From assembly GCA_964406605.1 (NCBI GenBank), contig CAYOSF010000004.1, forward strand, positions 36,322-100,321: a DNA stretch of 64,000 bases, read 5' to 3'. This document shows, piece by piece, positions 3,510-48,788 of the stretch. The DNA is from an uncultured Dehalococcoidia bacterium (GTDB lineage: Bacteria > Chloroflexota > Dehalococcoidia > DSTF01 > RBG-16-68-14). The notes below the pieces were generated by a model that ran no database searches, had not been told where the DNA came from, and saw only the letters and a list, made by a program, of their open reading frames with translations. Positions within the stretch are counted from its first letter, which is position 1, and every line of letters starts with the position of its first letter. The translations under genes and the position numbers were made by a program.

Positions 3510-4709
3510 ATGACTGACGCCGCCCTGTCCGGCCTGACGGTGGTCGAGCTGTGCGGAACGATCGCCGGGCCCTACTGCACCAAGGTCCTGGCGGATCTCG
3601 GGGCCCAGATAGTGAAGATCGAGGAACCTGCCGGAGGCGATCCGGCCCGGCGTGCGGGTCCTTTCCCGAAAGACAGCCCGCACCCTGAGCGCAGCGGTCT
3701 TTTCCTCTACCTCAATACGAACAAGCTGGGCGTCACACTCGACGTGACGAGCGCCACGGGCCGACATCTCCTGCTCGAGCTGCTGCGGGACGCCGACGTG
3801 TTCGTCCAGGATCTACCGCCGGGCGAGGCGGATGACCTGGGGATCGGCTACGAAGCGCTGGCGGATTCCCACCCGAAGCTGGTCGTCACTGCCATCTCTC
3901 CATACGGAGCATCGGGCCCCCACCGTGACTGGCGGGCCTATCACTTGAACCTGTACCACGGTAGCGGTCACTCTTCCTTCTTCTATCAGGACCCGCGGGA
4001 GGCGGCGAGAGGTCCGGTAGTCGGGGGCGGAAACGTCGGCGAGTACGATGCCGGCCTGGCGGCGGCCCTGGCAACCCTCGCGGCCGTTCTCGGGCGCGAG
4101 GCGACAGGTCGTGGACAGCAGGTGGAGGTGTCCAAGCAGGAGGCTCTCGTGGCCTTGGAGAGGGTTGAGATCGGCCGCCTCGCCAACGACCCCATCCCGA
4201 TGAATCGCCCGGGAATGGTCGGTGGGCTGGTGCGCTCCCGCGACGGCTACGTTGTGATAACGGCTGCCCAGGACGGCCAGTGGAAGGGTCTGGTGAAAGC
4301 GATGGGCAGCCCCGCATGGGCCGAGGACGAGAGCTGCCGTGACGAGAAGAGCCGCTCGGACAATCGAGACGAGATCCAGCGTCGGATCGAGGAGTGGGCT
4401 GCCGGGCTCTCCAGCGATGAGATCTATCGCGTGTCGCAAGAAAGCAGCACGCCTGTCGGCCCGGTGCGCACCGTGGCCGAGGTGATGGCATGGCCGCAGG
4501 CGCGCCAGAGGGGTTTTTTCGCCGAAATTGAGCACCCGGAGGTCGGCCGCCTCGAATACCCCACAGCGGCCTACCGCTTTTCTGAGACCCCCTGGCGGGC
4601 GGAGCGACCGGCGCCGCTTCTTGGTGAACACAACGAATCGGTCTTCTGCGGGAAGCTCGGGCACGCGCGAGCCGACCTGGTGCGTTTGCGAGCGGCTGGA
4701 GTGATCTGA
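3510..4709 (+). CDS. CoA-transferase family III (CaiB/BaiF-type)
   Basis: MTDAALSGLTVVELCGTIAGPYCTKVLADLGAQIVKIE, the classic family III N-terminus, with full-length similarity. An in-frame upstream ATG at 3474 is also possible. Confidence 0.8.
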   Translation: MTDAALSGLTVVELCGTIAGPYCTKVLADLGAQIVKIEEPAGGDPARRAGPFPKDSPHPERSGLFLYLNTNKLGVTLDVTSATGRHLLLELLRDADVFVQDLPPGEADDLGIGYEALADSHPKLVVTAISPYGASGPHRDWRAYHLNLYHGSGHSSFFYQDPREAARGPVVGGGNVGEYDAGLAAALATLAAVLGREATGRGQQVEVSKQEALVALERVEIGRLANDPIPMNRPGMVGGLVRSRDGYVVITAAQDGQWKGLVKAMGSPAWAEDESCRDEKSRSDNRDEIQRRIEEWAAGLSSDEIYRVSQESSTPVGPVRTVAEVMAWPQARQRGFFAEIEHPEVGRLEYPTAAYRFSETPWRAERPAPLLGEHNESVFCGKLGHARADLVRLRAAGVI

Positions 4710-4711
4710 CG

Positions 4712-5971
4712 ATGGTTGAAGCAGAGGTCAAGGGAGGTCCCCTGGCAGGAGTCAGAGTGCTTGACTTCACGTGGGCCTGGGCCGGACCCCACGGGACGTT
4801 GCTGCTCGGTCTCCTGGGGGCGGAAGTGATCAAAGTCGAGAGCAGAAGCCGACTCGACCATACGCGGGTTCGGTCGCTGATGACCGGCCCAACGATGACC
4901 AGTCCCGATCACTCGGCCATCTTCAACGATCTGAACGTCGGCAAACTGAGCCTGAGCCTGAACCTCAAGAAGCCGAGGGCGGTGGAGATCGCCCGGGAGG
5001 TGGCAAGGCACAGCGACGTGGTGACCGCGAACATGAGGCCGGGCGCCCTGGATCGACTGGGCCTGGGCTACGAGTCGCTGCGGGAGGTGAAGCCGGACAT
5101 CATCGTGGTATACTCCTCGGCCGTCGGTAGCACCGGGCCCGAACACACCTACGTAGGATACGCGCCCACCTTCGCCGCGCTGGGCGGCCTCTCCTCGATC
5201 ACCGGACACCGGGGCGGCATGCCCAACCCACACAGCGGCGCGGTCGACCTGCGGGTGGGTACCACGTGTGCATTCGCCGTTCTGGCCGCGCTCTACCATC
5301 GCCGGCGAACGGGCGAGGGACAGTTCATCGATATCTCCTCGGCGGAAGCGGTGAGCGCCCTTATCGGCGGCGTCTTCATGGAGCCTGCCATGAACGGGCG
5401 AACGCCCACTCGGGACGGCAACCGCGATCCATCGATGGCGCCGCACAACTGCTATCCCTGCCGGCGCAGCAAGAGCGCGTCGGGTGCGAACGAGGCAAGG
5501 CAGGAATCGCTGAGCATCGCCGTGGGCTCCGACGGGGAATGGCGGTCGCTCTGCGGGGTGATGGGCCGGGACGATCTGGCGGATGACACAAGGTTCGCCG
5601 ACGTGGTGAGCCGGTATCGGAACCAGGAAGAGCTGGACGCCATCATCTCGGCGTGGACGCGGCGGAGGACGGCCCAGAAGACGGCCGATAGACTGCAGAA
5701 GGCAGGCGTCGCGGCCGTACCGGTGCTCTCGGGCAACGGCCTGACGCAGGACCGCCACATTCGAGCCAGGCATGTTATCGACAAGGTTGAGCACCCGGTC
5801 CTCGGACCACAGTTCGTTCTGGGAGTCCCTTGGCGGCTTTCCGATACGCCGGCTGCCGTCCGCCGCCCCGCTCCCTGCCTGGGAGAGCACAACAGCTATG
5901 TGCTGGGAGAGATCCTGGGTATGGCGGAGGAGGAGATCGAAGCGCTGATCCGCGACGGCGTGGTGGCCTAG
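4712..5971 (+). CDS. CoA-transferase family III (CaiB/BaiF-type), tandem paralog
   Basis: GVRVLDFTWAWAGPHGTLLLGLLGAEVIKVE. Starts 2 bp after the stop of the preceding paralog. Confidence 0.8.
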   Translation: MVEAEVKGGPLAGVRVLDFTWAWAGPHGTLLLGLLGAEVIKVESRSRLDHTRVRSLMTGPTMTSPDHSAIFNDLNVGKLSLSLNLKKPRAVEIAREVARHSDVVTANMRPGALDRLGLGYESLREVKPDIIVVYSSAVGSTGPEHTYVGYAPTFAALGGLSSITGHRGGMPNPHSGAVDLRVGTTCAFAVLAALYHRRRTGEGQFIDISSAEAVSALIGGVFMEPAMNGRTPTRDGNRDPSMAPHNCYPCRRSKSASGANEARQESLSIAVGSDGEWRSLCGVMGRDDLADDTRFADVVSRYRNQEELDAIISAWTRRRTAQKTADRLQKAGVAAVPVLSGNGLTQDRHIRARHVIDKVEHPVLGPQFVLGVPWRLSDTPAAVRRPAPCLGEHNSYVLGEILGMAEEEIEALIRDGVVA

Positions 5972-6128
5972 TAGCAGCGGACAATCGCCAGACGCGGCGG
6001 CCCAAGCATTCGCTCCGTGACGCGCCGTCAGAGGCAATTCCCGGGAACGAAGAAAAAGATCCCTCAGACCGTGTAAGAATTCCGCGCCGCACCTGTCATA
6101 CCGGTGACACCAAGAAAGGAGGCGTAGG

Positions 6129-6731
6129 ATGAACGCCATCATAAAGGTCACCGGTCTCATGGTCATGGTAGCGGCGGGGTACATCGGAATAGCTGGAGGC
6201 GTCGTCCAGGCGGCACCGGGGCCCGAAGAGGCGCAGATGGAGCGGATCACCGACCCGTGCATGGTGCTCGCGGACTGCATCCAGATCGATCCCTGTCTCG
6301 TCGTGGATTGTGACGATGAGCCGGCCGTTGAGCCTGCTGACGACCCGGCCGTTGAGCCTGCTGACGACCCGGTCGTTGAGCCTGGTGACGACCCGGCCGT
6401 TGAGCCCGGCGACGACCCGGCCGTTGAGCCTGGTGACGACCCGGCCGACGATCCTGGGGACGACCCGGCCGACGACCCTGGGGACGATCCCGGAGACGAC
6501 CCGGGCGACAATCCGGGCGACGATCCTGGAGACCACCCTGGTGACCAGCCGGGCGGTGACCCTGGGAACCAGCCCGGGACCAGCTCTCTGCCCGACGCCG
6601 GCACCGGCGACGGCGCCCCGGCCCAGAACAGCCAGGGAGTCATCGTTCTCGCCGCACTGGGCATCGCGGGCATCGCGATCCTGTTCGCCATGTTCGTGGC
6701 GTTCCGGAGCAAGGAATCGTCCGCACGCTGA
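6129..6731 (+). CDS. Secreted/anchored acidic tandem-repeat protein (Asp/Pro-rich)
   Basis: N-terminal hydrophobic signal/TM. Five 8-aa repeats (DDPAVEPA/G), then about twelve 4-aa repeats (DDPG/DDPA). C-terminal LPDAGTG...hydrophobic helix...RSKESSAR tail. Confidence 0.5.
   Translation: MNAIIKVTGLMVMVAAGYIGIAGGVVQAAPGPEEAQMERITDPCMVLADCIQIDPCLVVDCDDEPAVEPADDPAVEPADDPVVEPGDDPAVEPGDDPAVEPGDDPADDPGDDPADDPGDDPGDDPGDNPGDDPGDHPGDQPGGDPGNQPGTSSLPDAGTGDGAPAQNSQGVIVLAALGIAGIAILFAMFVAFRSKESSAR
6304..6590 (+). repeat. In-frame tandem repeats (24-bp x5, then 12-bp x~12) inside CDS 6129..6731
   Basis: Repeating gacgacccggccgttgagcctgstgac units followed by gacgayccbggv units, read directly from the sequence. 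Confidence 0.7.
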
Positions 6732-6816
6732 CATCGAGGGAAGAGGTAGGACGGCAGCGGGCCGCCCGTACGGGCGGCCTGTTGCGTCGTGGGGCGGATC
6801 AGGATGGCGCGCCCGG

Positions 6817-7230
6817 TCAGCCATGCCAGACCCTCAGGAACTCCCCCGGCGTGACGAACTCCGTGCCCGCATAGCCCCGCGAGAGCAGTACTTCTCTGTC
6901 GGCCGTGACCAGATATTGGGCGTCTCCGCCGACCGCCGCTTCGGCCAGTCGACGGTCTCCCTCGTCCTTGAGCCGGAGGCCGGTCACCTTCCCCGGCACG
7001 ACGAGCACACTTCGCTCGCGCAGCTCCTGCAGCAGGCCGGTCACCTGGCCGCGGGACGTGACCCGCCCGAGCCAGGCGGCTCCCAGCACCAGTTCCGCCT
7101 CGCGGAGCGTCGCCTCCGACGCCACGATCTCCAATCGACCGTCGCGCCACGCCCGCACGATCTTCGCAGCGCTGCCTCTCGGCTTCGCCAGCGCGGCGAC
7201 GAAGACGTTGGTATCGACGACGATTCTCAC
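6817..7230 (-). CDS. PIN-domain protein (putative TA-system toxin family)
   Basis: VRIVVDTNVFVAAL...LVTADREVL motif layout typical of PIN nucleases. Start probably the GTG at 7230; the ORF is open up to 7290. Confidence 0.55.
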   Translation of the reverse strand: MRIVVDTNVFVAALAKPRGSAAKIVRAWRDGRLEIVASEATLREAELVLGAAWLGRVTSRGQVTGLLQELRERSVLVVPGKVTGLRLKDEGDRRLAEAAVGGDAQYLVTADREVLLSRGYAGTEFVTPGEFLRVWHG

Positions 7231-9180: not shown

Positions 9181-9800
9181 GCGCGTGAGGGCGAGGGGGG
9201 AGGAGGGTCATGGGTCGGGGGTCGAGGGTCGGGGGTCGGGGGAGGGTCCTTCGGCAAGCCCTTCGGCAGGCTCGGGGCGAGGGGCCAGATTCCTCGCTTC
9301 GCTCGGAATGACATTGCTCTTCATGTGAGTGGGGGAGCGCTGATGTCGAGGCGGGCGAGGGGAGAGGGTTCACCGCGGCGGCGAGCTTGGAGGGCGTGGC
9401 TCCCTCACCCCGACCTGACGGTCGACCCTCTCCCGCAGGCGGGCGAGGGGAGAGGAGGGTCATGGGTCGGGGGTCGAGGGCCGCGGGAGGGCGGGAGGTT
9501 CCTTCGACAGGCTCGGGGCGAGGGGCCAGGTTCCTCGCTTCGCTCGGAATGACACCGCTCTTCATGTGAGTGGGGGCGCGCTGCTGATGTCAAGGCGGGC
9601 GAGGGGAGAAGGCGGGGGTCATGGGTCGGGGTCGAGGGTCACGAGAGGGCGGGAGGTTCCTTCGACAGGCTCGGGGCGAGGGGCCAGATTCCTCGCTTCG
9701 CTCGGAATGACATTGCTCTTCATGTGAGTGGGGGAGCGCTGATGTCGAGGCGGGCGAGGGGAGAGGGTTCACCGCGGCGGCGAGCTTGGAGGGCTTCGAG
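9181..9800. repeat. Cluster of REP-like composite repeats (family 1): three copies of a ~110-130-bp unit, one CCCTCACCCCGACCTGACGGTCGACCCTCTCCCGCAGGCGGGCGAGGGG hairpin unit, and (GGGTCGR)n G-tracts
   Basis: Near-identical units at ~9267-9393, 9507-9612 and 9667-9795 (GCTCGGGGCGAGGGGCCAGATTCCTCGCTTCGCTCGGAATGACATTGCTCTTCATGTGAGTGGGGG...). G-tracts at 9208-9245, 9463-9480, 9617-9640. The same modules recur at 20285-20545, 26893-27125 and 32800-32905. Confidence 0.85.
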
Positions 9801-10337: not shown

Positions 10338-10570
10338 TTGTTTCGCAAAATCGTGTTTTTTCTATGTACGCGCATTCGCATTTGGTATTGGGCGTGTGGG
10401 CGCACCCTACCCGCGGAAGGGCAGGCGGCCGTGCGCCCCTACATGGCTAGGCGGCCGTACGCCCCTACGGTTGGGTGTACGGAGCTACGATACGGCGCGG
10501 GCGGGAGAACGCCAAGGGGTGGGTGGCACGGCAAAAGGGTCGAGGGCCAGGGGTCGCGGGTCGCCGGAGC
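10338..10570. repeat. Family-3 element, copy 1 (~190 bp), plus adjacent (GGGTCGR)n tract
   Basis: Homologous to 20558-20725: shared GTTTYGCARAATCRTGTT...CGCGYATTCGCRTTTGGTAT, perfect palindrome GGCGCACGGCCGTGCGCC, and 3' block GTACGRAGCYTAGGATACGGCGCGGKCGGGAGARCGCSAAGGGGYGGGTGGCAC. Confidence 0.75.
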
Positions 10571-20284: not shown

Positions 20285-20545
20285 TCGTTGAGAGGATAGC
20301 GGCGAGAGGGTCGGGGGTCGAGGGCCGGGGGTCGCGAGAGCGCGGGCGAGGCAGTTGCCTGTTGATTGCATTTGGAAATGGGACGGATTCCAGATACGAG
20401 AAGCGCGCATGTGGTTTGATTGACCGTCGTCGGGATGGGACCGAGGGCCGGAGATGGAGGGTCGGGGGCCAAGGGTCGCCGGAGCGGACCCTCACCCCGA
20501 CCTGACGGTCGACCCTCTCCCGCACGCGGGCGAGGGCAGGGAACG
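20285..20545. repeat. Family-1 repeat modules: (GGGTCGR)n tracts plus CTCACCCCGACCTGACGGTCGACCCTCTCCCGCACGCGGGCGAGGG unit
   Basis: Direct sequence identity to modules in the 9181-9800 cluster. Confidence 0.8.
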
Positions 20546-20557
20546 GTAGGGAATTCG

Positions 20558-20725
20558 TTTTGCAGAATCATGTTCTTCCCCTGCACGCGTATTCGCGTTT
20601 GGTATCTGGAATCGGTTTCCGGGCGCACGGCCGTGCGCCCCTACGCGACCGGACCCGCACAAGACGGGTTGTACGAGCCTAGGATACGGCGCGGTCGGGA
20701 GAGCGCGAAGGGGCGGGTGGCACCG
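20558..20725. repeat. Family-3 element, copy 2
   Basis: See copy 1 (10338-10530). Contains palindrome GGCGCACGGCCGTGCGCC. Confidence 0.75.
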
Positions 20726-20852
20726 GGGGGAGGGCGGATACTGCGGCTGGCGAACGCAGAACGGACGCTACTGCGGCGGGACGGGCCTCGCCAGCAGAGC
20801 GAGTATGCGGGACAAGGGCGGCCTATAGCGAGGGGGCGGCGATCGGCTTAGA

Positions 20853-22208
20853 ATGGTAGTGGTCATGAGGCAAGTGGAGAGCGTGGCTGTGGGCGCGAAG
20901 GCGTGCAACTTGGCGGAGCTAGAGCCCTATGTCCGAGCGCTGGAGACTCTGGCGACGCAAGCCCGCCCTGTGGGTGTAAGCACGGGCAGCGCTGATTGGA
21001 TGTCGAAGGTGCTTGATGGGCAGCCCAGCGGGGAGCTGAAGAGAGTTGTTCCGCTGGAGAAAAGAAGGGAAATGGGCGCGTTCTTCACCGGGAAGGCGCT
21101 GGCAGGCGAAACGGTAGCGCCATGGCGGCAGAAGCTCACGCGGCAGGCGAGGATAGTTGACCCGGCGTGCGGTGCGGGAGATCTTCTGCTTGCATGTGCG
21201 CGGTCATTACCAACGCATGAAACACTCAGAGAGACCTTGTGGCAATGGGGCCGCCAGGTATTCGGGTTCGACTTGCATCCGGAGTTCGTGCGGGTGACCA
21301 AAGCAAGGCTAGCCCTGCTGGCCGCCCAGCGTGTACGCCGAGACAGTAGAGTGGTGATCCCTCCGCTTGATCAGATGTTCCCGAATGTGCAGGTGGGGGA
21401 TGGCTTGGGCGATGTGTACGATGCGGTCCGCCCGACGCACATCGTCTTGAACCCTCCGTTCCAGAGAGCGGAGGCCCCGGACTGGTACACGTTGGGGAAT
21501 GGTCTGGTATCGCGCGCGGCGGTGTTCGTTCAGAGATGGCTGTTGGAGGCAGAGTCAAAAACGGAGTTCGCCGCAATCCTGCCTGACGTACTGAGGACGG
21601 GAGCCAACTACGCGAGCTGGAGAGCGTGGGTGGAAAGGCAGAGCGCGAGCCGCGAGGTGAAGGTGCATGGAGCCTTTGACTCCGAGGCGGATGTGGATGT
21701 GTTCATACTTCGGGTGGTATGCGGCTCGAGGAAGGAAGCCGATGAGACTGGCTGGTGGCGGGGAGGGCCGGCGGAGCAGGGATGCGTAGGCGAGCGGTTC
21801 AATGTGCACGTGGGATCCGTGGTGCCGCACAGAGACGCGAAAATGGGGCCTTGGCGTGCGTTTGTCACCACGCGGGTATTGCCACGCTGGGGTGTGGTGA
21901 GGGCTGATAAGAGCAAGAAACGCCGATATCGCGGCCGAACGTTCTCGCCGCCGTTCGTGGCGATACGCCGCACATCAGCACCCGGCGACAGGAAGCGGGC
22001 TGTGGGTACGATTGTCACAGGTGCGATTCCTGTGGCGGTAGAGAACCATCTTATCGTGGCCGAGCCGCGTGACGGCTCAGTTCAGAGCTGTCGTGGGTTG
22101 CTGGATGTGCTGCATTCAGACGAGAGCGATCGGTGGTTCGACGAGCGAATACGGTGTAGACATCTGACGGTGTCGGCGGTGGCCGAATTGCCGTGGCGGA
22201 GCTGGTAG
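20853..22208 (+). CDS. N6-adenine DNA methyltransferase (gamma-class amino-MTase)
   Basis: Motif I DPACGAGDLL (AdoMet binding), motif IV IVLNPPF ((N/D)PP(Y/F)). No TRD/REase fused. Alternative ATG 12 nt downstream. Confidence 0.8.
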   Translation: MVVVMRQVESVAVGAKACNLAELEPYVRALETLATQARPVGVSTGSADWMSKVLDGQPSGELKRVVPLEKRREMGAFFTGKALAGETVAPWRQKLTRQARIVDPACGAGDLLLACARSLPTHETLRETLWQWGRQVFGFDLHPEFVRVTKARLALLAAQRVRRDSRVVIPPLDQMFPNVQVGDGLGDVYDAVRPTHIVLNPPFQRAEAPDWYTLGNGLVSRAAVFVQRWLLEAESKTEFAAILPDVLRTGANYASWRAWVERQSASREVKVHGAFDSEADVDVFILRVVCGSRKEADETGWWRGGPAEQGCVGERFNVHVGSVVPHRDAKMGPWRAFVTTRVLPRWGVVRADKSKKRRYRGRTFSPPFVAIRRTSAPGDRKRAVGTIVTGAIPVAVENHLIVAEPRDGSVQSCRGLLDVLHSDESDRWFDERIRCRHLTVSAVAELPWRSW

Positions 22209-22209
22209 G

Positions 22210-24258
22210 ATGACGACCGACTACCTCAAGTTCTCTCCAGACATTCTGCGCCGGCTGGGCGAAGAGCTTGTGCCTCAGCCGGAACAGGGCATCGTAGAGC
22301 TGGTGCGAAACTCATACGATGCGGACGCCGTAAGCTGCACTGTGGAGATCAACGACGCGGGGGGGCCAGGAGGAGCGGTTTGCGTCACTGATGACGGCGT
22401 GGGCATGGATGTCGAGGCGATCAGCTCTGGGTGGCTGGTAGTGGGACGGTCGCCAAAAGTGGGGCGGCAGGTCACCGGGCGGGGGCGCTATCCTGTAGGG
22501 GACAAGGGGCTTGGGAGACTGGCCGCACTGCGCATGGGGCGGTTCGCCGACCTGGCGACTCGACCCAAGCGGGATCCGGGGAAGCAGTTCCGCCTGGTAA
22601 TCGACTGGGTGCGCGTAGACAGCGCGACTGTAGTGGAAGGCGTTCCATTCGAGATCAAGGAACAAGAGACCAGGGAGCCCCCTGGAACGACGATCGAGAT
22701 CAGGGACCTCCACGTTGCGCTGGGGCGGAGAGAGGTGAACCGGCTAGCGCGGTCACTGCTTCTACTGGCGGATCCCTTCGATGACTCGACTGGATTCCAC
22801 CCGCAACTTGTGGCACCAGCCTTCAGTGATCTGGAGAAGCGTGTGCGGGAGTCCTATTTCGCGGAAGCGGATCACAAGCTTGTGGCGAGCTTGGACGAGG
22901 CCGGTAGAGGTCAAGCGGAAGTAGTGGACTGGAAGAATGAAGTGCTGTGGAAGGCTGCACACGAGGATTTGAGCGACCGGCCGTACGAAGCGCCTGCTGC
23001 AACCTTCGAGTTGTCGGTCTTCCTTCTGGACTCCAAGACGTTCTCTTCGCGCTCGGTATCACTGCGGGAAGTCAGGCAATGGCTCCAGGTGGTGGGCGGT
23101 GTCCACCTGTACCATAGGGGACTTCGCGCACATCCGTATGGCGATCCCGGCCACGACTGGCTGGAGATGAATCTCCGAAGGGCAAGAAGCCCCGAAGAGC
23201 GCCCTTCTACGAACACGTCGATTGGCCGGGTCGTCGTCCCGGATCCTGGAGAGCACCTGATACAGAAGACGGATCGAACGGGCTTCATAGAGAACGAAGC
23301 TTTCGGGGAGCTCCGTGGCTTTTGCACAGACGCTCTGGATTGGATGGCGAAAGCGCGACTGCGTGCAAGAGAACGGGGCCGGCAGAAGGAGAGAGTGGGG
23401 GCGTCGCGGTCGGTGGTACGTGCGCGCGAGTCAGTCAAGCACGCCATGGACGAGGTGCCCGTACCGGTGCGGAGGTCGGTGGAAAAGGCGGTGGAGCGCC
23501 TGGATCGTGCGCGTGACAGAGAGTCAAGAGCGCTCAGGGAAGAGCTGCAGCTGTACAGAACGCTGGCTACTGTGGGGACGACGGCCGCAGTCTTCGCTCA
23601 CGAATCGGCGAAGCCAGTTTCTCAGATCGAGAGGACGGCCAGGATCATCGAGAATCGCGGGCGTAGGCTGTTGAAGGAGCGGTATGCAGAAGAGCTGGAG
23701 AAGCCCGTTGGCCTGGTCATTCGGTCATCTCAAGCTCTGCGGAGTTTTGCCGCGCTGCCGCTGAGTCTTCTCAAGCGGGAAAAGCGAAGGGTGGGTCGCG
23801 TGGACGTGCATGCGGTCATCGGGGATGTTCATGATCTCTTCGAACCGTTCCTGACGGACGCTCGCATACGGGTGGATCTTGAACTGACGCAGCAGATCCC
23901 TTCGATAAGGGGGAGTGCTGCAGCGCTTGAGGCCATAGTGGCGAATCTGCTTACTAACGCGGTAAACGCTTTCGCAGCTCAGTCTGGCAAGGTAGCGTCG
24001 CGCCGAGTGGTGATTCGTACAGAACTCTCGGGAGACAGACTGCTCCTGCGAGTCATGGACAATGGACCGGGAATCACGGACATAAGCGTAGACGACATCT
24101 GGCTGCCTGGCCAGAGCACCGTGCCTGGTGGCACAGGCCTGGGGCTTACGATTGTGCGCGACTCGGCGGTGGACCTTGGCGGGAGTGCGCACGCACTGGC
24201 GCATGGGGAGCTGGAGGGTGCCGAATTGGTAGTTGAGCTTCCGACTATCGGAGCGTAG
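22210..24258 (+). CDS. Cytoplasmic GHKL-ATPase (MORC/MutL-like Bergerat fold) fused to a histidine kinase core (HisKA-like + HATPase_c)
   Basis: N-terminal ELVRNSYDADA N-box, DDGVGMD and GDKGLG. C-terminal H-box-like VFAHESAKPVSQI, N-box LLTNAVNAF, DNGPGI, GGTGLGLTIV. No TM segments. Starts 2 bp after the MTase stop. Confidence 0.75.
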   Translation: MTTDYLKFSPDILRRLGEELVPQPEQGIVELVRNSYDADAVSCTVEINDAGGPGGAVCVTDDGVGMDVEAISSGWLVVGRSPKVGRQVTGRGRYPVGDKGLGRLAALRMGRFADLATRPKRDPGKQFRLVIDWVRVDSATVVEGVPFEIKEQETREPPGTTIEIRDLHVALGRREVNRLARSLLLLADPFDDSTGFHPQLVAPAFSDLEKRVRESYFAEADHKLVASLDEAGRGQAEVVDWKNEVLWKAAHEDLSDRPYEAPAATFELSVFLLDSKTFSSRSVSLREVRQWLQVVGGVHLYHRGLRAHPYGDPGHDWLEMNLRRARSPEERPSTNTSIGRVVVPDPGEHLIQKTDRTGFIENEAFGELRGFCTDALDWMAKARLRARERGRQKERVGASRSVVRARESVKHAMDEVPVPVRRSVEKAVERLDRARDRESRALREELQLYRTLATVGTTAAVFAHESAKPVSQIERTARIIENRGRRLLKERYAEELEKPVGLVIRSSQALRSFAALPLSLLKREKRRVGRVDVHAVIGDVHDLFEPFLTDARIRVDLELTQQIPSIRGSAAALEAIVANLLTNAVNAFAAQSGKVASRRVVIRTELSGDRLLLRVMDNGPGITDISVDDIWLPGQSTVPGGTGLGLTIVRDSAVDLGGSAHALAHGELEGAELVVELPTIGA

Positions 24259-24259
24259 A

Positions 24260-24976
24260 TTGACCTCCGTGCGTTCCGACTCGCAGATCGAAAAGGTGGC
24301 GGTGGTTGATGACGACCAAACCGAGGCACAGCTAATGAGCGAGATTGTGCAAGAGGCTGGCTTCTTGCCTGTGCCAGTTCTTGCGACCGAGCGAACGGAT
24401 CGGTTTGACAACCCCTCGGTGCTAGCAGCTGTGATTCAGGACAGAGCGGAGGCGGCCGTGTGTGATCATCGCCTGCGACCGCTGGGTTATGCATCTTTCG
24501 ACGGCGCACAACTGGTGGCCGAGCTTCTTGTGCGAAAGATACCGGCAGTGCTGGTCACTACGTACCTGGATATCGACGCAGATGTGTCGATTAGAAGGTG
24601 GCGCGACAAGATCCCAGTTCTACTAAGTAGGGATGAAGCCGATCCAGAGCATATCCGAGAGGGACTGGAAGCGTGTCTGTCGGAGATAGCCGGCGCAGTA
24701 CTAGCTGGCCGGCGGCCTCGCAGAGCCCTGATACGCGTGGTGGATGTCACACAGGAATCCAGCGAGACCGTTGTGGACGCTATCGTGCCGCAGTGGAACC
24801 CGAACAAGGGCGTTCGCTTTCCGGTCACGCTCCTGCCTCGTGAGCTGCACAGCGAGGTGGCCCCCGGAATCAGGCTACTGGCTGATGTGAATATTGGCGC
24901 ACGAAAGGCCGAAGAGCTGTTCTTCGGGAACTTCGATCTTGCGCCAGAGCCTGCTCGAGAGAATGACGTCCTGTGA
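24260..24976 (+). CDS. Response-regulator receiver (REC) domain protein with ~100-aa uncharacterised C-terminal extension
   Basis: KVAVVDDDQTEAQ…AAVCDHRL (phospho-Asp position)…VLVTTY…K. TTG start at 24260 directly after the kinase stop. The in-frame ATG at 24233 would overlap the kinase by 26 bp. Confidence 0.65.
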   Translation: MTSVRSDSQIEKVAVVDDDQTEAQLMSEIVQEAGFLPVPVLATERTDRFDNPSVLAAVIQDRAEAAVCDHRLRPLGYASFDGAQLVAELLVRKIPAVLVTTYLDIDADVSIRRWRDKIPVLLSRDEADPEHIREGLEACLSEIAGAVLAGRRPRRALIRVVDVTQESSETVVDAIVPQWNPNKGVRFPVTLLPRELHSEVAPGIRLLADVNIGARKAEELFFGNFDLAPEPARENDVL

Positions 24977-25943
24977 GCTAGCAATCCTTGATGTGGGACA
25001 CGGCAACTGTGTCGTGCTCAGTGACGACCTTGGCACAGTGGTGTTCGACGCTGCGAGCGGAGAGACCTTGCTCGAGTTCCTCGAACAGGAGGAGATTACT
25101 GACATAGATGCGGTGCTGATCTCGCATGCGGACGCCGACCACATCGCGGGCGTGCTGACACTCCTGCTGGAGCCCAGCGTTCTCGTTCGCAAGATCTACC
25201 TCAACCCAGACGCTGCGAGGACAACACAGATATGGTGGGACTTCCGGTGCGCGCTACGTGTCGCCAGAAGGAGCTTCGGCACACAGGTGAAGACGCAGCT
25301 GACAATGGAGTCGTCGGCGGAGTTCGCCAGGGGTGAGGTGCAGATTGATGTGCTAGCACCGCAACCTGAGATTGCGGCAAGCGGCGCGGGCGGCCGGGAC
25401 TTGAGGGGACGTCTCCTCACGTCCCACTCGGTGTCCGCCGTCGCCCGGATCATGACAGACGATGTCGGCCAGGCAATTCTGTGTGGTGACCTGGACGACG
25501 TGGGCCTTGACAACTTTCTAGAGGCGGGTTCGTCGCCGAGCGCGAAGGTGCTGCTCTTCCCACATCACGGCGGGACGCCAGGTGGAAGCAATGCCTTCGA
25601 CTTCGCGAAACGACTGGTTCAGGCTGTTCAACCGAATGCGGTGGTGTTCTCAAACGGGCGGGCGAGACACGGAACTCCGCGTCCCGAGATCATTGAGGGC
25701 GTACGCGCGGCCGCGCCGCAGGCGCACATCGCGTGCACCCAGCTGTCCGAGAGATGCGCAGCAAATACTCCTTCTGAGCCTCCTGGGCATCTGGCCGCGC
25801 TCCCCGCACAAGGTCGCGCGGTCAACGCGTGCTGCGCAGGGAGTCTGCACGTGAGCCTGCGCGAAGGCAGCATAGCTGCACCGAAGCCGAGCGAGCATCT
25901 GGGTTTCATTAGGCGAGAGGCTCCGACGCGGCTTTGCGAGTGA
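24963..25943 (+). CDS. MBL-fold hydrolase of the ComEC-C-terminal type (candidate nuclease effector)
   Basis: LAILDVGHGNCVVL…DAVLISHADADHIAG…LLFPHHG. Overlaps the REC gene end by 14 bp. Confidence 0.7.
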   Translation: MTSCELAILDVGHGNCVVLSDDLGTVVFDAASGETLLEFLEQEEITDIDAVLISHADADHIAGVLTLLLEPSVLVRKIYLNPDAARTTQIWWDFRCALRVARRSFGTQVKTQLTMESSAEFARGEVQIDVLAPQPEIAASGAGGRDLRGRLLTSHSVSAVARIMTDDVGQAILCGDLDDVGLDNFLEAGSSPSAKVLLFPHHGGTPGGSNAFDFAKRLVQAVQPNAVVFSNGRARHGTPRPEIIEGVRAAAPQAHIACTQLSERCAANTPSEPPGHLAALPAQGRAVNACCAGSLHVSLREGSIAAPKPSEHLGFIRREAPTRLCE

Positions 25944-26106
25944 CGCTGGGCAAGGGATTGTAGTCTGTCGCAGAGAGGCCGGTTGGCGGGCGGCGAGCTG
26001 GTGCCGATGGAGGCGGAACTGGCGGGCCGTGAGGGGCGCCAGTACGAGCCGGCGTCGGTGCTGCTGGAGCGCGTCAAGGCAAAGCGGGTGGCGCGGTAGA
26101 CCAGAC

Positions 26107-26761
26107 GTGAGGCGCGATTCCGAGCGGCGGCATCGCCAGTCCATTCGGCTGAAAGGGTACGACGACGCGCAGGCCGGCGCGTATTTCGTGACGGTCTGCA
26201 CGTACGGTCGGGAATGCCTGTTCGGGGAGGTGGCCGGCGGTGAGGTACGGTTGAACGAATGTGGCGAACTGGTTGAGGCGTGCTGGAATGACATTGCCGG
26301 CCATTTCGCCTGCGTCCAATTGGACGCGTTCGTGATCATGCCCAATCACGTTCACGCTATCCTTCACATCACGGAATGCCAGAGCGCCGCAACCGTAGGG
26401 GCACGGCATGCCGTGCCCCTACCGGGCAACGTGCCCCACCGAAACGTTGAACGGTTCGGCAAGCCGGTGGTGGGTTCGATTCCGACCATCGTGCGGTCCG
26501 TGAAATCCGCCACCACCAAACGTATCAACGAACGGCGCGACACGCCCGGGCGCGCGCGTGTGGCAACGCAACTACTACGAACACATCATCCGCGACGAGG
26601 AAACCACCATGGGCGCGGAAACCGCGCCCCTACCGGGGGTGGAACGACCGGCGCTGGACCGTATCCGACGGTACATCGTCGACAATCCGGCACGGTGGGC
26701 GTCCGATCCGGAGAACCCGCAGGCGGCGGTGCCGGAACGCGAGGAGGCATGGCGCACGTGA
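26107..26761 (+). pseudogene. REP-associated tyrosine transposase (RAYT / IS200-like TnpA_REP) with +1 frameshift
   Basis: Frame 1 reads HRQSIRLKGYDDAQAGAYFVTVCTYGRECLFGE…FVIMPNHVHAILH…SVKSATTKRINERRDTPG. Frame 2 continues VWQRNYYEHIIRDEE…IRRYIVDNPARW. The break lies in a GCGCGCG run near 26545-26555. Confidence 0.75.
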
Positions 26762-26892
26762 CCGCGTGGGTCACCCATGGGCGCAGAGACCGCCACTACG
26801 GGACCGGCGGCGGGGATGGTGCCCGATCCCCGGGCGGGTTAGAAACCCGCCCCTACGGCGGGTGCGGCCCGGAGGGCGAGGGGAGCGCCCGG

Positions 26893-27125
26893 TAGGCCTA
26901 TGGCGAGGGGCCAGATTCCTCGCTTGCGCTCGGAATGACGGAGAGGGGGAAGGCGGGAGAGCGAGGGGCCGGGGGTCGAGTGTCGGGGGTCGGGAAAGAA
27001 CGGGCGGTGTGAGATGGTGGGGGCGTGGACGCACACGGATAGAGACCGAGGGTGGAAAGCCTCGGCTACGGTGGCGAGAGGGGTCGAGAACCGGGAGTCG
27101 AGGGTCGAGGGTCGAGGGTGGCAGT
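26893..27125. repeat. Family-1 repeat modules immediately downstream of the RAYT remnant
   Basis: GGCGAGGGGCCAGATTCCTCGCTTGCGCTCGGAATGAC plus several GGGTCGAGGGTCG tracts, e.g. gggtcgagggtcgagggtcgagggtgg at ~27096. Confidence 0.8.
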
Positions 27126-27137
27126 GTGCGGGACCAG

Positions 27138-28912: not shown

Positions 28913-29719
28913 ATGGGTGCCATGATGGATGCTCCTAGCCCGGGCGTGGGCGGGTTCTACCTGGACGGCGAGCCGCAGCTATCGCCGGAGCGTGCCGTGG
29001 CCGAGCGGTGCGAGCGTCAGGGGATCACGTTGGACCAGATGGGGGTGAAGCCGTCGGTGGTGGCGACGTTCTTCCCGCAACTCACCACGTATCTCGCCCA
29101 GCGAAGCGGCGCGACTCGGTCCGAGCACTGGTGGCCGGAGATGGACAGCCGCGCGCTCTTCACGGCGGACGGCGGGGTGTCCATCGCGACGCTGGACGTC
29201 GGCGCGCCGGGCGCGTGCTTGATCTTCGAGGAGCTGATCGCGTGCGGGGCGAGGAATATCGTGGTGGTGGGGGCGGCCGGGAGCCTGCAGCACCACCTGC
29301 CTATCGGGTCGGTCGTGGTGCCGACAAGGACCGTGCGAGAGGAAGGCACGTCCTACCACTACCTGCCGCCGGAAGCGCCGGCCGAGGCGTCCGCGGGCGT
29401 GCTCGGCGCGCTGCGGGCCGCCTGGCGCGGGTCGGGCGAGATGCGGGAGGGCCTGCACTGGACCACGGACGCGCCCTATCGAGAACACAAGGAGAAGGTC
29501 GCCGCCTTCCGCGAGGCCGGCGTTCTCTCGGTCGACATGGAGGTGTCGGCGCTGTACGCGGTTGCGCAGCACCGGGGCGCGTCGTGCGCGGCCATTCTCG
29601 CGATATCGGACGAGCTGTACGAACCGTGGCGGATCGGCTTCTACGGGGAGGAGTTCCAGCGCGCGATCGTGCGGTGCGGGCTGGCCGCGTTGGAGGCGGC
29701 GACGCAGGTGGCGACCTGA
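28913..29719 (+). CDS. Nucleoside phosphorylase family protein (PNP_UDP_1 fold)
   Basis: NIVVVGAAGSL … SVDMEVSALYAVAQ blocks characteristic of the PNP/MTAN superfamily. Confidence 0.55.
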   Translation: MGAMMDAPSPGVGGFYLDGEPQLSPERAVAERCERQGITLDQMGVKPSVVATFFPQLTTYLAQRSGATRSEHWWPEMDSRALFTADGGVSIATLDVGAPGACLIFEELIACGARNIVVVGAAGSLQHHLPIGSVVVPTRTVREEGTSYHYLPPEAPAEASAGVLGALRAAWRGSGEMREGLHWTTDAPYREHKEKVAAFREAGVLSVDMEVSALYAVAQHRGASCAAILAISDELYEPWRIGFYGEEFQRAIVRCGLAALEAATQVAT

Positions 29720-39845: not shown

Positions 39846-39957
39846 GGGGCCGGACTGGCTCCCCGAGCAGTCCTTCCCCGGAAGGAGAACCTGCAATCCT
39901 TCCCCGGAAGGACGGTTAATCCTTCCCTGGAAGGACCCGCTCTGGCGGGTGAGCGAT
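39846..39957. repeat. Family-2 repeat (tRNA-Asn 3'-half-like unit with two CCTTCCCCGGAAGGA palindromes)
   Basis: TGGCTCCCCGAGCAGTCCTTCCCCGGAAGGAGAACCTGCAATCCTTCCCCGGAAGGA…; compare tRNA-Asn 3' half TGGCTCCCCGAGCAGGACTCGAACCTGCAACC at 46860-46891. Confidence 0.75.
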
Positions 39958-40062
39958 GGGGAACTAGGGAGCCTGCGCTCCGGCCGTTGGGCGACTATGG
40001 TATCACGCGGCCTGTTACGCCGCGAACCACAGAACCTCTCCCCCACCGATCGCGGTCTCCAC

Positions 40063-41835: not shown

Positions 41836-42372
41836 ATGGGCCAAATGCGGCGGCCCGACCTGTCGGTACACATCAGTCTTGGCGTGCTTTGGGCTTCGTC
41901 ACGGCCCTCCTCAGCCGCTCTTTGGCACGAGCTGCTTTGCGTCTGCTACCACGAGTTCGGCCACGTAGCCACGTTCTGGGCACAAGGCTATGTCTCAGTG
42001 GGCGAGTATGTGGTTTGCGGTGATGGCTGCCGCCGGGCTGAGCGAGCAGAAGGGTTGGTCCTAATGCCGAAATCCTCGCTCCGCTCGCTCGTGATTGCCA
42101 ACAATTGCGGATGCACACGCAGCACCCGTCGAATCCGTCAACTGCTCAGATCAACATTGACAACTAATGCTTGGTGTGTTGCCACCGAGACCTCCTCTGC
42201 TGACCTCAGAGCATGCTCATCTGGGGGGCTGGTGGTGGTTCAGGTGCCGAATCCGCGGGTGTTGAGTCTGGTGTTAGCTGTTGGCTCCCCGAGCATCCTT
42301 CCCCGGAAGGAGAACCTGCAATCCATCCCCGGAAGGACCCGCTCTACTGGTTGGTGGGTCTTCTGCGTCTGA
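41836..42372 (+). CDS. Possible degraded HExxH-motif ORF (YHEFGH), lower GC, 3' end replaced by family-2 repeat
   Basis: Only support: HEFGH motif, a local GC drop, and no better ORF in 41500-42280. Composition is odd (Cys/Ser-rich). Confidence 0.2.
   Translation: MGQMRRPDLSVHISLGVLWASSRPSSAALWHELLCVCYHEFGHVATFWAQGYVSVGEYVVCGDGCRRAERAEGLVLMPKSSLRSLVIANNCGCTRSTRRIRQLLRSTLTTNAWCVATETSSADLRACSSGGLVVVQVPNPRVLSLVLAVGSPSILPRKENLQSIPGRTRSTGWWVFCV
42284..42350. repeat. Family-2 repeat unit
   Basis: TGGCTCCCCGAGCATCCTTCCCCGGAAGGAGAACCTGCAATCCATCCCCGGAAGGACCCGCTCTACTGG. Confidence 0.8.
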
Positions 42373-42601
42373 GGCGTTCGCGCAATTCCTGGTTCGCTCT
42401 GCCTCGCTTGAGTTCTCGCTCCCGGCGCATGGCGGCGGTCCGGGTAGGGAACTCCTCAGAGTACACCAACTGCCAGGGGCCTCGCGTGGCCGTCCACTTG
42501 GCCTGTCCCTCAGCATGCTCGGTCAAGCGCCGGGCCAGGTCTCTGGTGCTTCCGACGTACAATCGTCCTTCCGGGTTCTGCAACACGTAGACAGAGAACA
42601 A
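42344..42601 (-). CDS. GIY-YIG nuclease-family small protein
   Basis: FSVYVLQNPEGRLYVGSTRDLARRLTEHAEG…WQLVYSEEFPTRTAAMRRERELK. Start set at the TTG at 42601 because the longer ORF N-terminus is encoded by the repeat array. Confidence 0.6.
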   Translation of the reverse strand: MFSVYVLQNPEGRLYVGSTRDLARRLTEHAEGQAKWTATRGPWQLVYSEEFPTRTAAMRRERELKRGRANQELRERLRRRRPTNQ

Positions 42602-42622
42602 GAACGCCCCTTGACTCCGGAA

Positions 42623-42895
42623 AGCGGACTGGCTCCGCGAGCGTCCTTCCCTGGAAGGAGAACCTGCAACCCAGCGCTCGATCTTTCGCTGGAAGGACCT
42701 GCTCTGTGGTTGAGTAACTGGCTCCCCGAGCATCCTTCCCCGGAAGGACCCGCTCTATGGTTTGGTGGACTGGCTCCCCGAGCATCCTTCCCCGGAAGGA
42801 GAACCGGCAACCCAGCGGTGAATCCTTCCCCGGAAGGACCCGCTCTATGGTTTGGCGAAATGGCTCCCCGCGCCGGGGTAAAATCCGAACTTTTC
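42623..42895. repeat. Tandem array (~3.5 units) of family-2 repeats
   Basis: Units beginning CTGGCTCCCCGAGCATCCTTCCCCGGAAGGA…, in long (~90 bp) and short (~50 bp) forms. Confidence 0.85.
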
Positions 42896-46859: not shown

Positions 46860-46937
46860 TGGCTCCCCGAGCAGGACTCGAACCTGCAACCTAGCGGTTA
46901 ACAGCCGCCCGCTCTACCAATTGAGCTATCGGGGAGC
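46860..46937 (-). tRNA. tRNA-Asn: tRNA-Asn (GTT), CCA encoded
   Basis: Reverse complement GCTCCCCGATAGCTCAATTGGTAGAGCGGGCGGCTGTTAACCGCTAGGTTGCAGGTTCGAGTCCTGCTCGGGGAGCCA. 7-bp acceptor stem, D-, anticodon- (CTGTTAA loop) and T-arms fold canonically. Confidence 0.85.
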
Positions 46938-47153: not shown

Positions 47154-47582
47154 CTAGGAAAGGCCGACCCCGACCTGCTGGACGAGGGTCATCATGTCGA
47201 AGTAGCGATGGCTCTCCTTGATCCTTCCGCCCTCGAAGGTGAGTAGCTGGACGGACCGCGTTACCTGATGCTTGCCGGAGGCGGGGATCGTACCGTCCGG
47301 ACCAACGAGCGGGCGGGTGTGGGTCCCCTCCCAGATGATCTCCACCGTGGCGGTGCTGTCGCCGGCGACGGCCTTGGTGATGGTTCCCTTGGCGTCCGGG
47401 AAGGCTTCCTTCCAGCCGCGAGCTGCCTCGACGATCCGATCGGCGCCCCGGACGTGCAGGTGTGACCCGATCTCGTCGTACGCACTATCGGGCGCCAGCG
47501 TGGCCTTGAAGCGCTTCATGTCCCCGTCGTTGAACGCCCCGATGTTCTCTCGAGCCACGTGAATCATCTCTTGCTCGGTCAT
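47154..47582 (-). CDS. Ester-cyclase / SnoaL-like polyketide-cyclase family protein (copy A)
   Basis: MTEQEMIHVARENIGAFNDGDMKRFKATLAPDSAYDE… ~80% identical to copy B. Confidence 0.7.
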   Translation of the reverse strand: MTEQEMIHVARENIGAFNDGDMKRFKATLAPDSAYDEIGSHLHVRGADRIVEAARGWKEAFPDAKGTITKAVAGDSTATVEIIWEGTHTRPLVGPDGTIPASGKHQVTRSVQLLTFEGGRIKESHRYFDMMTLVQQVGVGLS

Positions 47583-47686
47583 TTCCTAGTCCTTCCCCTG
47601 GGTCTCTCGAAGGGCGACCCCGCGTCCCTTCGGGCCTGAGATAGGAACGGGGGATACCATCTTCACAAACAAGGATATCACTACTG

Positions 47687-47701
47687 ATTGACGAAGTCAA
47701 T
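47687..47701. promoter_or_regulatory. Perfect inverted repeat ATTGAC-GAA-GTCAAT (candidate operator) in divergent intergenic region
   Basis: Read directly. Identical site at 48519-48533 in the duplicate. Overlaps a TTGACG -35-like hexamer. Confidence 0.45.
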
Positions 47702-47878
47702 CGCCGCGATAGATAACAGCCGGGCTCATCCGGTCATGCGGGACAGGAGTGCATGTAGGAATCGTATTGGAGTCTTGAAGCGGCCAGAGTCAGAGCGTAA
47801 CGTGCTGATACAGATACGTGTTTGCGTTCTTCCCGATAGCCCGCAGGGGGCCGAGCTTCTGTTAGGCCCGTAGACGGC

Positions 47879-47913
47879 GCAGGCAGCCATCGGACATGGC
47901 TGCCTGCTTTCTT
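47879..47913 (+). terminator. Intrinsic-terminator-like hairpin (12-bp perfect stem GCAGGCAGCCAT/ATGGCTGCCTGC, 5-nt loop) followed by TTTCTT
   Basis: Read directly. Lies in the duplicated leader region ahead of a truncated HIT-gene 5' fragment. Confidence 0.55.
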
Positions 47914-47990
47914 GGTGCCGCCTGCGCGCCCAGCTAGAGATGGGCGACGGTCGCGCTCGTGCAGTGGTGTGCGTTCTGCCGCATCGTCCC

Positions 47991-48419
47991 TCAGGAGGAG
48001 GCGGCCCCGATCTGCTGAAGGAGCGTCATCATGTCGAAGTAGTGGTGGCTCTCCTTGATCCTTTCGCCCTCGAACGTGAATACTTCTACCGCCCGAGTGG
48101 TCTGGCGCTTGCCGGAGGGAGGAATCGTGCCTCCCGGACCCATGAGCGGTCCGGTATGCGTCCCCTCCCAGATGAGCTCTACCGTGGCGGTGCTGTCGCC
48201 GGCAACCGCCTTGGTGATGGTTCCCCTGGCGTCCGGGAAGGCTTCCTTCCAACCCAGAACGGTCTCTGCGATCTGCTCTGCGCCTTGGATGCGCCGGTGG
48301 GTCCCGACCTCGTCGTAGACGCTGTCGGGCGCCAGCGTGGCCTTGAAGCGCTTCATGTCCCCATCGTTGAACGCCTCGACGTTCTCACGGGCCAAGTGGA
48401 TCATCTCTTGCTCGGTCAT
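47991..48419 (-). CDS. Ester-cyclase / SnoaL-like polyketide-cyclase family protein (copy B)
   Basis: MTEQEMIHLARENVEAFNDGDMKRFKATLAPDSVYDE…. Start at Met45 of ORF 47991..48551. Confidence 0.7.
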   Translation of the reverse strand: MTEQEMIHLARENVEAFNDGDMKRFKATLAPDSVYDEVGTHRRIQGAEQIAETVLGWKEAFPDARGTITKAVAGDSTATVELIWEGTHTGPLMGPGGTIPPSGKRQTTRAVEVFTFEGERIKESHHYFDMMTLLQQIGAASS

Positions 48420-48518
48420 TTCCTGCTCCTTCCTTTCGATCTCCCCCCGAGTGTCTTGGCGGCCCTCCGAACGGGATGGAGGGTATACCATGCTTACAAG
48501 CAAGCGTAGCATGGTTTG

Positions 48519-48533
48519 ATTGACGAAGTCAAT
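48519..48533. promoter_or_regulatory. Second copy of ATTGAC-GAA-GTCAAT palindrome
   Basis: Identical 15-mer, same relative position between the cyclase (copy B) and HIT genes. Confidence 0.45.
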
Positions 48534-48738: not shown

Positions 48739-48788
48739 GCGTTTGACGCCGCCTGCGCGCCCACCTAGAATGGGCGACGGTCACTGTC

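Follow-up and report, generated by a model that had tools for sequence, protein, structure and literature searches.

Intact enzymes of the REP-associated tyrosine transposase (RAYT) family bind, cut and rejoin GTAG-footed REP hairpins in single-stranded DNA, by a chemistry that combines an HUH metal site with a tyrosine on a C-terminal helix. In subclass 2.4 TnpA_REP (Quentin et al. 2018, BMC Genomics 19:475, PMC6006769), a double-foot REP palindrome lies in frame inside the gene itself. Group 4 RAYTs are described as spread over many classes and as frequent in Cyanobacteria, Chlorobia and Caldilineae (Bertels, Gallie and Rainey 2017, PMC5581495). A GTAG family is reported from Thermomicrobium roseum, a member of the Chloroflexi, in a study on GTAG-tagged REPs (Di Nocera et al. 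2013, PMC3733652).

The locus reported here, at 26107–26761 of a 64-kb window (i.e., the whole stretch of DNA analysed), belongs to a known kind. It is a disrupted RAYT that resembles subclass 2.4 and contains REPs, and it comes from the metagenome-assembled genome of a member of the Chloroflexota. For DNA-level comparison it was aligned to the JGI contig L081, which encodes homologue P0002 (74% identical in amino acids to the repaired protein, i.e., the product obtained after removal of one base), with a mean column identity of 80%. The parts of the gene are as follows:

26107–26550, plus strand: RAYT N-terminal reading frame, which opens with GTG, includes helix alphaC as well as the HUH motif H81-V-H83 (PNHVHAI) and closes with …RRDTPG (translation, tblastn).
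26395–26422, no strand assigned: perfect 28-nt "double-foot" REP palindrome GTAGGGGCACGGCATGCCGTGCCCCTAC, located after the HUH motif and ahead of helix alphaC and translated in frame as VGARHAVPL.
26545–26558, plus strand: frameshift zone CCCGGGCGCGCGCG, with one base more than intact relatives (DNA alignment to L081, homologue consensus, HSP overlap).
26546–26761, plus strand: RAYT C-terminal reading frame (+1), …PGARVWQRNYYEHIIRDE…ALDRIRRYIVDNPARW…WRT*, with the predicted catalytic Tyr Y189 (repaired numbering) and N193 (translation).
26600–26647, plus strand: in-frame insertion of 48 nt (16 codons), (E)TTMGAETAPLPGVER, delimited to within ~3 nt by a 48-column gap against L081 and by protein alignment.

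Three-frame translation of 26107–26761 yielded VRRDSERRHRQSIRLKGYDD…FVIMPNHVHAILH…KRINERRDTPGRA in frame 1 from 26107, followed by nonsense, and …PGARVWQRNYYEHIIRDE…ALDRIRRYIVDNPARWASDPENP…WRT* in frame 2, with the stop codon at 26759–26761. The peptides quoted in the first-pass annotation, which had placed the N-terminal two-thirds of the protein in one frame and the C-terminus in the +1 frame, were hereby reproduced exactly. When intact homologues were searched against the window with tblastn, two HSPs were obtained (26107–26550 in frame 1 and 26546–26755 in frame 2) that overlapped at 26546–26550 and had a joint E of 1.75e-85, far beyond chance; the same search revealed no second RAYT copy in the 64 kb. 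The start at 26107 was also given by an independent Logan gene call. Instead of a continuous single ORF carrying both motifs, a one-base break was found at 26545–26557, and the sequence as given reads as a pseudogene of the RAYT family. Since frame 1 remains open to 26895, a gene caller would report a 288-aa ORF, and annotation as a RAYT pseudogene, or with a possible-indel flag, is more appropriate than annotation as a 288-aa hypothetical protein.

Profile, fold and homologue evidence agree that the gene is a RAYT/TnpA_REP of the Y1 HUH single-strand DNA endonuclease family, so that the RAYT/IS200-like homology proposed by the first-pass annotation is borne out. The comparison with Pfam Y1_Tnp (PF01797) named there as a check placed the repaired protein at 25.7 bits, above the gathering cutoff of 23. 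The NCBIfam model REP_Tyr_transpos (NF047646) gave 59.1 bits, under its equivalog cutoff of 80, by which the repaired protein would be related to this E. coli-type equivalog without being a member of it; that REP model was matched by 24/24 aligned members of the family and Pfam Y1_Tnp by 22/24. At E<=1e-10, 7540 homologues were recovered from Chloroflexota, Nitrospirota, cyanobacteria, Planctomycetota and others, several of them named RayT by JGI, and the best was an uninterrupted protein of 201 aa with 73% identity.

A PDB search with the single sequence gave no match, and a search with the family profile matched E. coli TnpA_REP (4ER8), to which it aligned both in the HUH strand and over the segment WQ…EH…Y-I-x-x-N-P. 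Specifically, the HUH motif in frame 1 (PNHVHAI, H81-V82-H83) aligned to PEHMH of 4ER8, and RRY189-IVD-N193-P to DYIYINP (Y115/N119 by numbering from the alignment start). N119 of TnpA_REP is a residue named in PMC6006769. The catalytic Tyr is therefore predicted to be Y189, which follows WQRNYYEH in the C-terminal frame. The expected polar residue lies four positions after it, and both are shifted by +1 from the frame of the HUH motif. An AF2 model of the repaired protein (pLDDT 73, pTM 0.71) had a confident core, and its top 30 PDB fold matches were all Y1 transposases, i.e., IS200/IS608/ISDra2 TnpA or 4ER8 (4er8_A).

The shared Pfam family and fold, with ISDra2 and IS608 TnpA among the top fold matches, would also suit the TnpA remnant of an autonomous IS200/IS605-type insertion sequence that is not a REP-associated enzyme, as would the lack of downstream synteny between L081 and the window and the partial second RAYT copy located 250 nt after the first in L081. 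Nevertheless, the TnpA_IS200 profile (NF033573) scored only 20.4 bits against a cutoff of 55, compared with 59 bits for the REP model, and the protein is ~200 aa long where the IS200/IS608/ISDra2 chains among the fold matches measure 125–152 aa. Moreover, neither of the neighbouring ORFs (an MBL-fold protein and a 508-aa ORF without Pfam hit) has a tnpB-type Pfam hit, and the hairpins at the locus are GTAG-footed REPs that are also dispersed elsewhere in the window, so that we regard an IS200/IS605 origin as extremely improbable.

The DNA alignment to L081 placed exactly one extra base in the window between ACG and GTGTGG, and all aligned homologues read TPG-x-x-(V/I)WQRNYYEH at the site of the break. 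Removing a base from CCCGGG (26545–26550) restores ACG CCG GGC GCG CGC GTG TGG, i.e., a repaired TPGARVWQ, with 5 mismatches to L081 in 21 nt, four of them synonymous, whereas removing it from the adjacent CGCGCGCG run (26551–26558) leaves ~10 mismatches (both read by eye from the alignment). Because of this difference, the C3G3 run is favoured over the GC run, and the extra base is most likely, by parsimony, in CCCGGG at 26545–26550, its exact position within 26545–26557 being ambiguous. The one-base break that the first-pass annotation had assigned to a GCGCGCG run thus stands, and its probable location moves to just 5′ of that run.

A set of 80 homologue genome loci (best identity 58%, hence without the source genome) contained no mid-gene frame change, and all 109 homologous proteins scorable for spacing were continuous, as were the closest relatives P0001 and P0002 across the shift position. 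Since none of the 80 loci has such a break, it is not a family feature and a conserved programmed shift is unlikely. Nonetheless, a +1 slip on ACG-CCC-G would yield precisely TPGARVWQ, as read off the codons, and CCC-N sites are prone to +1 slips; a programmed or tolerated shift of tRNA-Pro on CCC-G (CCC to CCG) could then supply …T-P-G-A-R-V-W-Q… and a regulated, low amount of full-length RAYT. In addition to the continuity of the homologues, it speaks against this scenario that the closest relative reads CCG-GGT at the site, that the site is followed by no in-frame stop or obvious stimulator (frame 1 being open to 26895), and that programmed frameshifting is, to our knowledge, without precedent in IS200/RAYT genes. 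We therefore deem it very unlikely, and from the three origins listed by the first-pass annotation (decay, sequencing error or programmed shift), decay is favoured. The production of two functional polypeptides from the split gene was likewise set aside, as no Shine-Dalgarno-like sequence precedes the GTG at 26558, judging from the sequence only.

The 28-nt palindrome lies 11 codons after the HUH motif, and in a protein alignment its translation, VGARHAVPL, is nearly invariant among the closest homologues. In a survey of the 80 homologue loci, which span many phyla and include 71 scorable genes, a GTAGGGGC…GCCCCTAC-type palindrome was present in most of the 71, 10–30 codons past the HUH motif. 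The exact 28-nt double-foot palindrome occurred in 38 loci, in codon phase 0 in 23 and in phase 1 in 15, the two phases giving VGAxHAxPL or RGTxxRAPT. The stems covary (99.2% of cells paired, with 45 double-sided changes, a level reached by 0/500 shuffles), and in several loci identical copies of the palindrome flank the gene. Because of the two codon phases, the compensatory stems and the identical flanking copies, the palindrome is to be regarded as a REP at the DNA level, and VGARHAVPL was rejected as a conserved protein motif. Neither is the intragenic palindrome a new feature, since it has been published for subclass 2.4 in PMC6006769; what our counts add is the frequency of this published intragenic REP in the RAYT clade. 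Neither the shift site nor the palindrome had a match in metagenome contigs when the sequence spanning it was searched as an exact pattern.

A second lesion, which had gone unnoticed in the first-pass annotation, was found further downstream. The 48-nt insertion is absent from every aligned homologue and is built around the GTAG-footed REP hairpin GTAGGGGCGCGGTTTCCGCGCCC (26611–26633, minus strand). The insertion sits seven residues before the predicted catalytic Tyr, and in the AF2 model it forms a low-confidence loop (164–180) directly before the Tyr helix (181–199). The spacing between WQ..YEH and Y-I-x-x-NP is 13 aa in 107/109 sequences, as opposed to 29 aa here and 19 aa in P0006, an intact-looking homologue in which this C-terminal site also carries an insert derived from a REP; the HUH-to-WQ distance, by contrast, ranges among homologues between 52 and 177 aa.

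At the level of substitutions, the copy does not appear obviously decayed. Deviations were found at 3/58 positions that are at least 90% conserved (R11Q, Y20D and G84A, all near-invariant residues, the last adjoining the HUH motif), which is within the range of intact homologues, 39/118 of which have at least three such deviations. Because both halves are open and well conserved, with only these 3/58 deviations, the copy has no long history of decay.

For most of the 71 loci, the intragenic double-foot REP occupies a matching position; it is read in different codon phases, its stems covary, and in several loci it is identical to the flanking REPs. These features would be compatible with a maintained cis element, e.g., a self-recognition or autoregulatory hairpin that co-evolves with the REPs of each genome. 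The window would then present a self-inflicted inactivation by the gene's own repeat type next to the catalytic Tyr. We offer this reading tentatively and consider it doubtful.

Outside the gene, the following repeats were located:

26779–26799, minus strand: degenerate REP, GGGCGCAGAGACCGCCACTAC, which lies 18 nt past the stop codon and shares its subtype with the insertion inside the gene (alignment; 5′ flank CACC(C)ATG in common).
26832–26856, minus strand: REP hairpin GTAGGGGCGGGTTTCTAACCCGCCC, ~70 nt past the stop codon, with a similar REP at the matching position in L081.
27047–27069, minus strand: weak GTAG-tagged hairpin, GTAG CCGAGG CTTTCCAC CCTCGG, read from the sequence and of uncertain REP-family membership.
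20621–20644, minus strand: dispersed REP of the same general type, GTAGGGGCGCACGGCCGTGCGCCC, elsewhere in the window.
~10420–10442 and 10449–10468, minus strand: two imperfect REP copies, elsewhere in the window.
26902–27123, plus strand: family-1 modules, with M1 (GGCGAGGGGCCAGATTCCTCGCTTGCGCTCGGAATGAC) at 26902–26939 and M2 blocks at 26951–27001 and 27073–27123 (repeat search and module scan).

Hairpins that combine GTAG with GGGC and have stems of at least 8 bp number about 6 in the 64 kb (20621–20644, 26395–26422, 26611–26633, 26832–26856 and the two imperfect ones at ~10420–10468), with GTAG on the minus strand in all extragenic copies, and GCCCCTAC occurs 7 times in the 64-kb window against 2.0 expected. 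At the RAYT locus, REPs are found only inside the gene (26395–26422, 26611–26633) and 3′ of it (26779–26799, 26832–26856), the 160 nt upstream of the start being free of them. The gene had been described as flanked by repeats, with repeat modules beginning ~130 bp downstream; this applies to its 3′ side and not to its 5′ side, and the modules are real (26902 onward), but they are preceded by REP-like GTAG hairpins, both within the gene and, starting 18 nt past its stop codon, downstream of it.

The family-1 modules are of a different make. M1 is GGCGAGGGGCCAGATTCCTCGCTTCGCTCGGAATGAC, M2 is a G-rich (GGGTCGN)n array with the G-rich strand on plus in 8/8 cases, and M3 and M4 are two further modules at other clusters in the window; the GTAG foot is absent from all four. 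A scan of RAYT-homologue loci totalling 711 kb found no M2, M4 or M3 core motif, a single short M3 sub-motif (in L012), and M1-like sequence in no more than two loci, both from Dehalococcoidia, one of which has it 8 nt away from a double-foot REP. Altogether, family-1 modules were not found beside the RAYT homologue in 79/81 related loci. The proposal of the first-pass annotation that this locus explains the dispersed repeat family is not supported by these data. The repeats that conform to the known REP type of this RAYT family are the GTAG+GGGC hairpins, which that annotation does not mention, and the cognate repeats of the RAYT would be the sparse GTAGGGGC hairpins, not the G-rich or ATTCC…GGAAT family-1 modules. 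Nevertheless, a spatial, BIME-like association exists, REPs and M modules co-occurring in 3/4 mosaic clusters of the window. These clusters comprise at least two unrelated components, i.e., GTAG-footed REPs and G-rich/ATTCC…GGAAT modules, and only the former have a known enzymatic partner.

An independent view of the region was provided by the Logan assembly of SRR14802572, in which a 5692-nt contig (L082) is 100% identical to 20646–26337. This contig begins right after the REP at 20621–20644 and stops at the conserved DAFVI|MPNH-coding sequence inside the RAYT, ~210 nt short of the shift, so that the break site lies outside its span. Its interruption at a conserved motif implies that near-identical RAYT sequences occur elsewhere in the sample. 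The single-copy, domesticated state that the first-pass annotation ascribed to RAYTs is established for groups 2 and 3 (PMC5581495) and does not necessarily extend to the clade here.

Exact-protein look-ups of the 288-aa read-through ORF, the 67-aa C-terminal ORF, P0001 and the product of a neighbouring PNP-family gene gave no record. The latter gene is located as follows:

28913–29719: PNP-family neighbour gene.

Elsewhere in the window, the RNase Y (600–2138) shares 85% identity with its counterpart in "Chloroflexi bacterium RBG_16_68_14". A 307,586-bp NCBI contig encodes an identical RNase Y, along with proteins that are identical or near-identical to three further ORFs of the window.

The contig break inside the gene also bears on the question whether the extra base is real, since near-identical RAYTs in the sample could confuse a consensus. 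The gene might be intact, with the extra base a sequencing, consensus or strain-mixing artefact at CCCGGG(CG)4 and the RAYT functional with both in-frame REP inserts. A single-base break in a low-complexity run is what such an artefact would produce, a homopolymer or simple-sequence run being a typical site of sequencing or consensus error, and removal of one base puts the HUH motif, WQRNYYEH and the Tyr/Asn pair all in place, in a protein with only 3/58 conserved-site deviations. Moreover, the clade tolerates in-frame REP inserts (PMC6006769), and the insert in P0006 suggests that the 48-nt insertion may be tolerated as well. Against an artefact, the window is otherwise base-perfect over 5.7 kb relative to the independent assembly, and both the rare insertion by the catalytic Tyr and the missing 5′ REP are what a copy released from selection would be expected to show. 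A crude scan of GC3 phase flagged only normal gene junctions and no other frame breaks in the window, but it is uninformative, as it would miss the RAYT break too, the GC3 of the RAYT (0.76) being below its threshold. On balance, an intact gene hidden by an artefact is possible but, in our judgement, somewhat unlikely.

Since its HUH motif and catalytic Tyr are split over two frames and a second REP has inserted, the gene has most likely been recently inactivated, and we put the probability that it is a recently inactivated RAYT pseudogene carrying a real mutation at roughly 0.6. A real mutation is suggested by the absence of a REP on the 5′ side, by the rare insertion beside the catalytic Tyr and by how accurate the adjoining assembly proved to be, while the simple-sequence context of the indel, the otherwise good conservation and the possible tolerance of the insertion count against the pseudogene reading. 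In this copy, one extra base in CCCGGG(CG)n at 26545–26557 moves the HUH motif and the catalytic Tyr into different frames, and a second, 48-nt REP copy has inserted in frame seven residues ahead of that Tyr. Under recent inactivation, the REP hairpins within the gene and 3′ of it, with none 5′, would represent a small, decaying REPtron. Whereas identity, fold, frame break, insertion and REP anatomy are seen in the data, we infer that the mutation is real and the gene inactive, and that the GTAG-footed hairpins are its substrate repeats. The locus also offers a concrete example of a REP landing in the transposase gene of its own family at a second site that is normally invariant in length.

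In comparison with described systems, E. coli TnpA_REP (YafM, PDB 4ER8; Messing et al. 2012, Ton-Hoang et al. 2012) has the same fold (Foldseek E 2.7e-05, TM 0.45/0.58), alignable HUH and WQ..(F/Y)WEH…Y-I-x-x-N-P motifs, and GTAG-footed hairpins as its associated repeats. However, identity to it is only ~15%, the E. coli gene lacks an intragenic REP, and the E. coli REPs are bulged and very abundant, as opposed to the perfect short palindromes at low density found here.

The GTAG-tagged REPs of PMC3733652 resemble those of the window in their GTAG foot and GC-rich stem, in their grouping into clusters and in the presence of REPs in frame inside ORFs. The likeness is one of foot and stem type, the stems here being unmatched to the 24 families of that paper, and REPs inside the RAYT gene itself are not described in the part considered. 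Group 4 RAYTs (PMC5581495) are similar, by description, in the taxonomic spread of the homologues and in flanking repeats that are only modestly abundant.

Finally, subclass 2.4 (PMC6006769) differs from the present locus in that the copy here is frameshifted, has an additional REP inserted at a site where this is unusual, immediately ahead of the helix with the catalytic Tyr, shows REPs on its 3′ side only, and contains an internal palindrome without an identical extragenic copy within 64 kb. Shared with subclass 2.4 are the HUH/Y1 core, a variable REP-derived insertion domain between beta3 and alphaC, "double-foot" REPs (5′ GT[AG]G … C[TC]AC 3′) and canonical long REPs whose stem opens with three G-C pairs, so that the gene, as matched by the published description and not by the authors' profiles, fits subclass 2.4.

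The RAYT is preceded by a gene block with repeat clusters on both sides (20290–20720 and 26770–27130). Two features are relevant here:

20853–26100, block upstream of the RAYT, with a 451-aa ORF, a 682-aa protein, an ORF of ~235 aa and an MBL-fold protein
25983–26099, 38-aa ORF (MAGGELVPMEAELAGREGRQYEPASVLLERVKAKRVAR) immediately 5′ of the RAYT start, a gene call in the Logan assembly

The 682-aa protein carries HATPase_c_3 and HATPase_c domains, and neither the 451-aa nor the 38-aa ORF had a Pfam match; the latter may be the leftover of a disrupted gene. With a GC content of 0.61 and a GC3 of 0.62–0.70, the block lies below its neighbouring genes (e.g., a GC3 of 0.90 for the PNP-family gene), and could represent an acquired island or a cassette of the defence type.

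The stretch from 20646 to 26337 was found to be 100% identical to an independent Logan contig (L082, from SRR14802572), which starts directly past the REP at 20621–20644 and whose other end falls precisely on the conserved motif that codes for MPNH in the RAYT. This suggests that the assembly graph was broken there by k-mers common to other REPs and RAYT copies in the sample. On the contig of the closest relative, L081, a second, partial RAYT (L081:736–981, residues ~120–201) lies ~250 nt 3′ of the first copy, and REPs separate the two. This points to duplication or fragmentation of the RAYT in this lineage.

Two further repeat types occur in the window:

26902–26939, 9289, 9530 and 9688, ATTC(C/T)TCGCTTCGCTC(G/A)GAATGAC module
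9205–9247, 9457–9492, 10537–10563, 20308–20343, 20459–20485, 26951–27001 and 27073–27123, (GGGTCGN)n blocks, G-rich strand on +

The ATTC…GAAT module was also found in two loci from Dehalococcoidia MAGs (L017:3062–3121 and L035:4840), in the first of which a double-foot REP lies 8 nt away. The module therefore seems to be a repeat common to the wider Chloroflexota that at times adjoins REPs. The G-rich heptad blocks are present in each mosaic repeat cluster of the window, with their G-rich strand on the + strand in 8/8 copies, + being the strand of positive GC skew across the window; these blocks may have G-quadruplex potential.

Other repeats in the window were the following:

39850–39970 and 42278–42873, a distinct family of short repeats based on TCCTTCCCCGGAAGGA(GAACCTGCAA) hairpins flanked by GGACTGGCTCCCCGAGC, present as several copies (tandem or dispersed) and bearing no relation to the GTAG-footed REPs
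47156–48842, tandem duplication of a ~830-nt unit (72–85% identity; families D3, D9, D13 and D17), each copy with a 31-nt inverted repeat
46863–46935, minus strand, tRNA gene ~220 nt from this duplication
6266–6577, array of 12/24-nt tandem repeats (GACGACCCGGCCGTTGAGCCTG…) within a long minus-strand ORF (4571–7150, 859 aa) that had no Pfam match

Finally, the RAYT gene itself harbors a palindrome:

26395–26422, intragenic palindrome within the RAYT ORF

Among 71 scored RAYT homologues from many phyla, the majority had a palindrome of the form GTAGGGGC-[variable stem]-GCCCCTAC at the same ORF position. Its stems were fully compensated across these homologues, its codon phase differed between homologue loci (L001–L081), and some RAYT loci (L006, L066, L074 and L077) contained tandem half-copies of it. 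Intragenic REPs have already been published for subclass 2.4 (PMC6006769).
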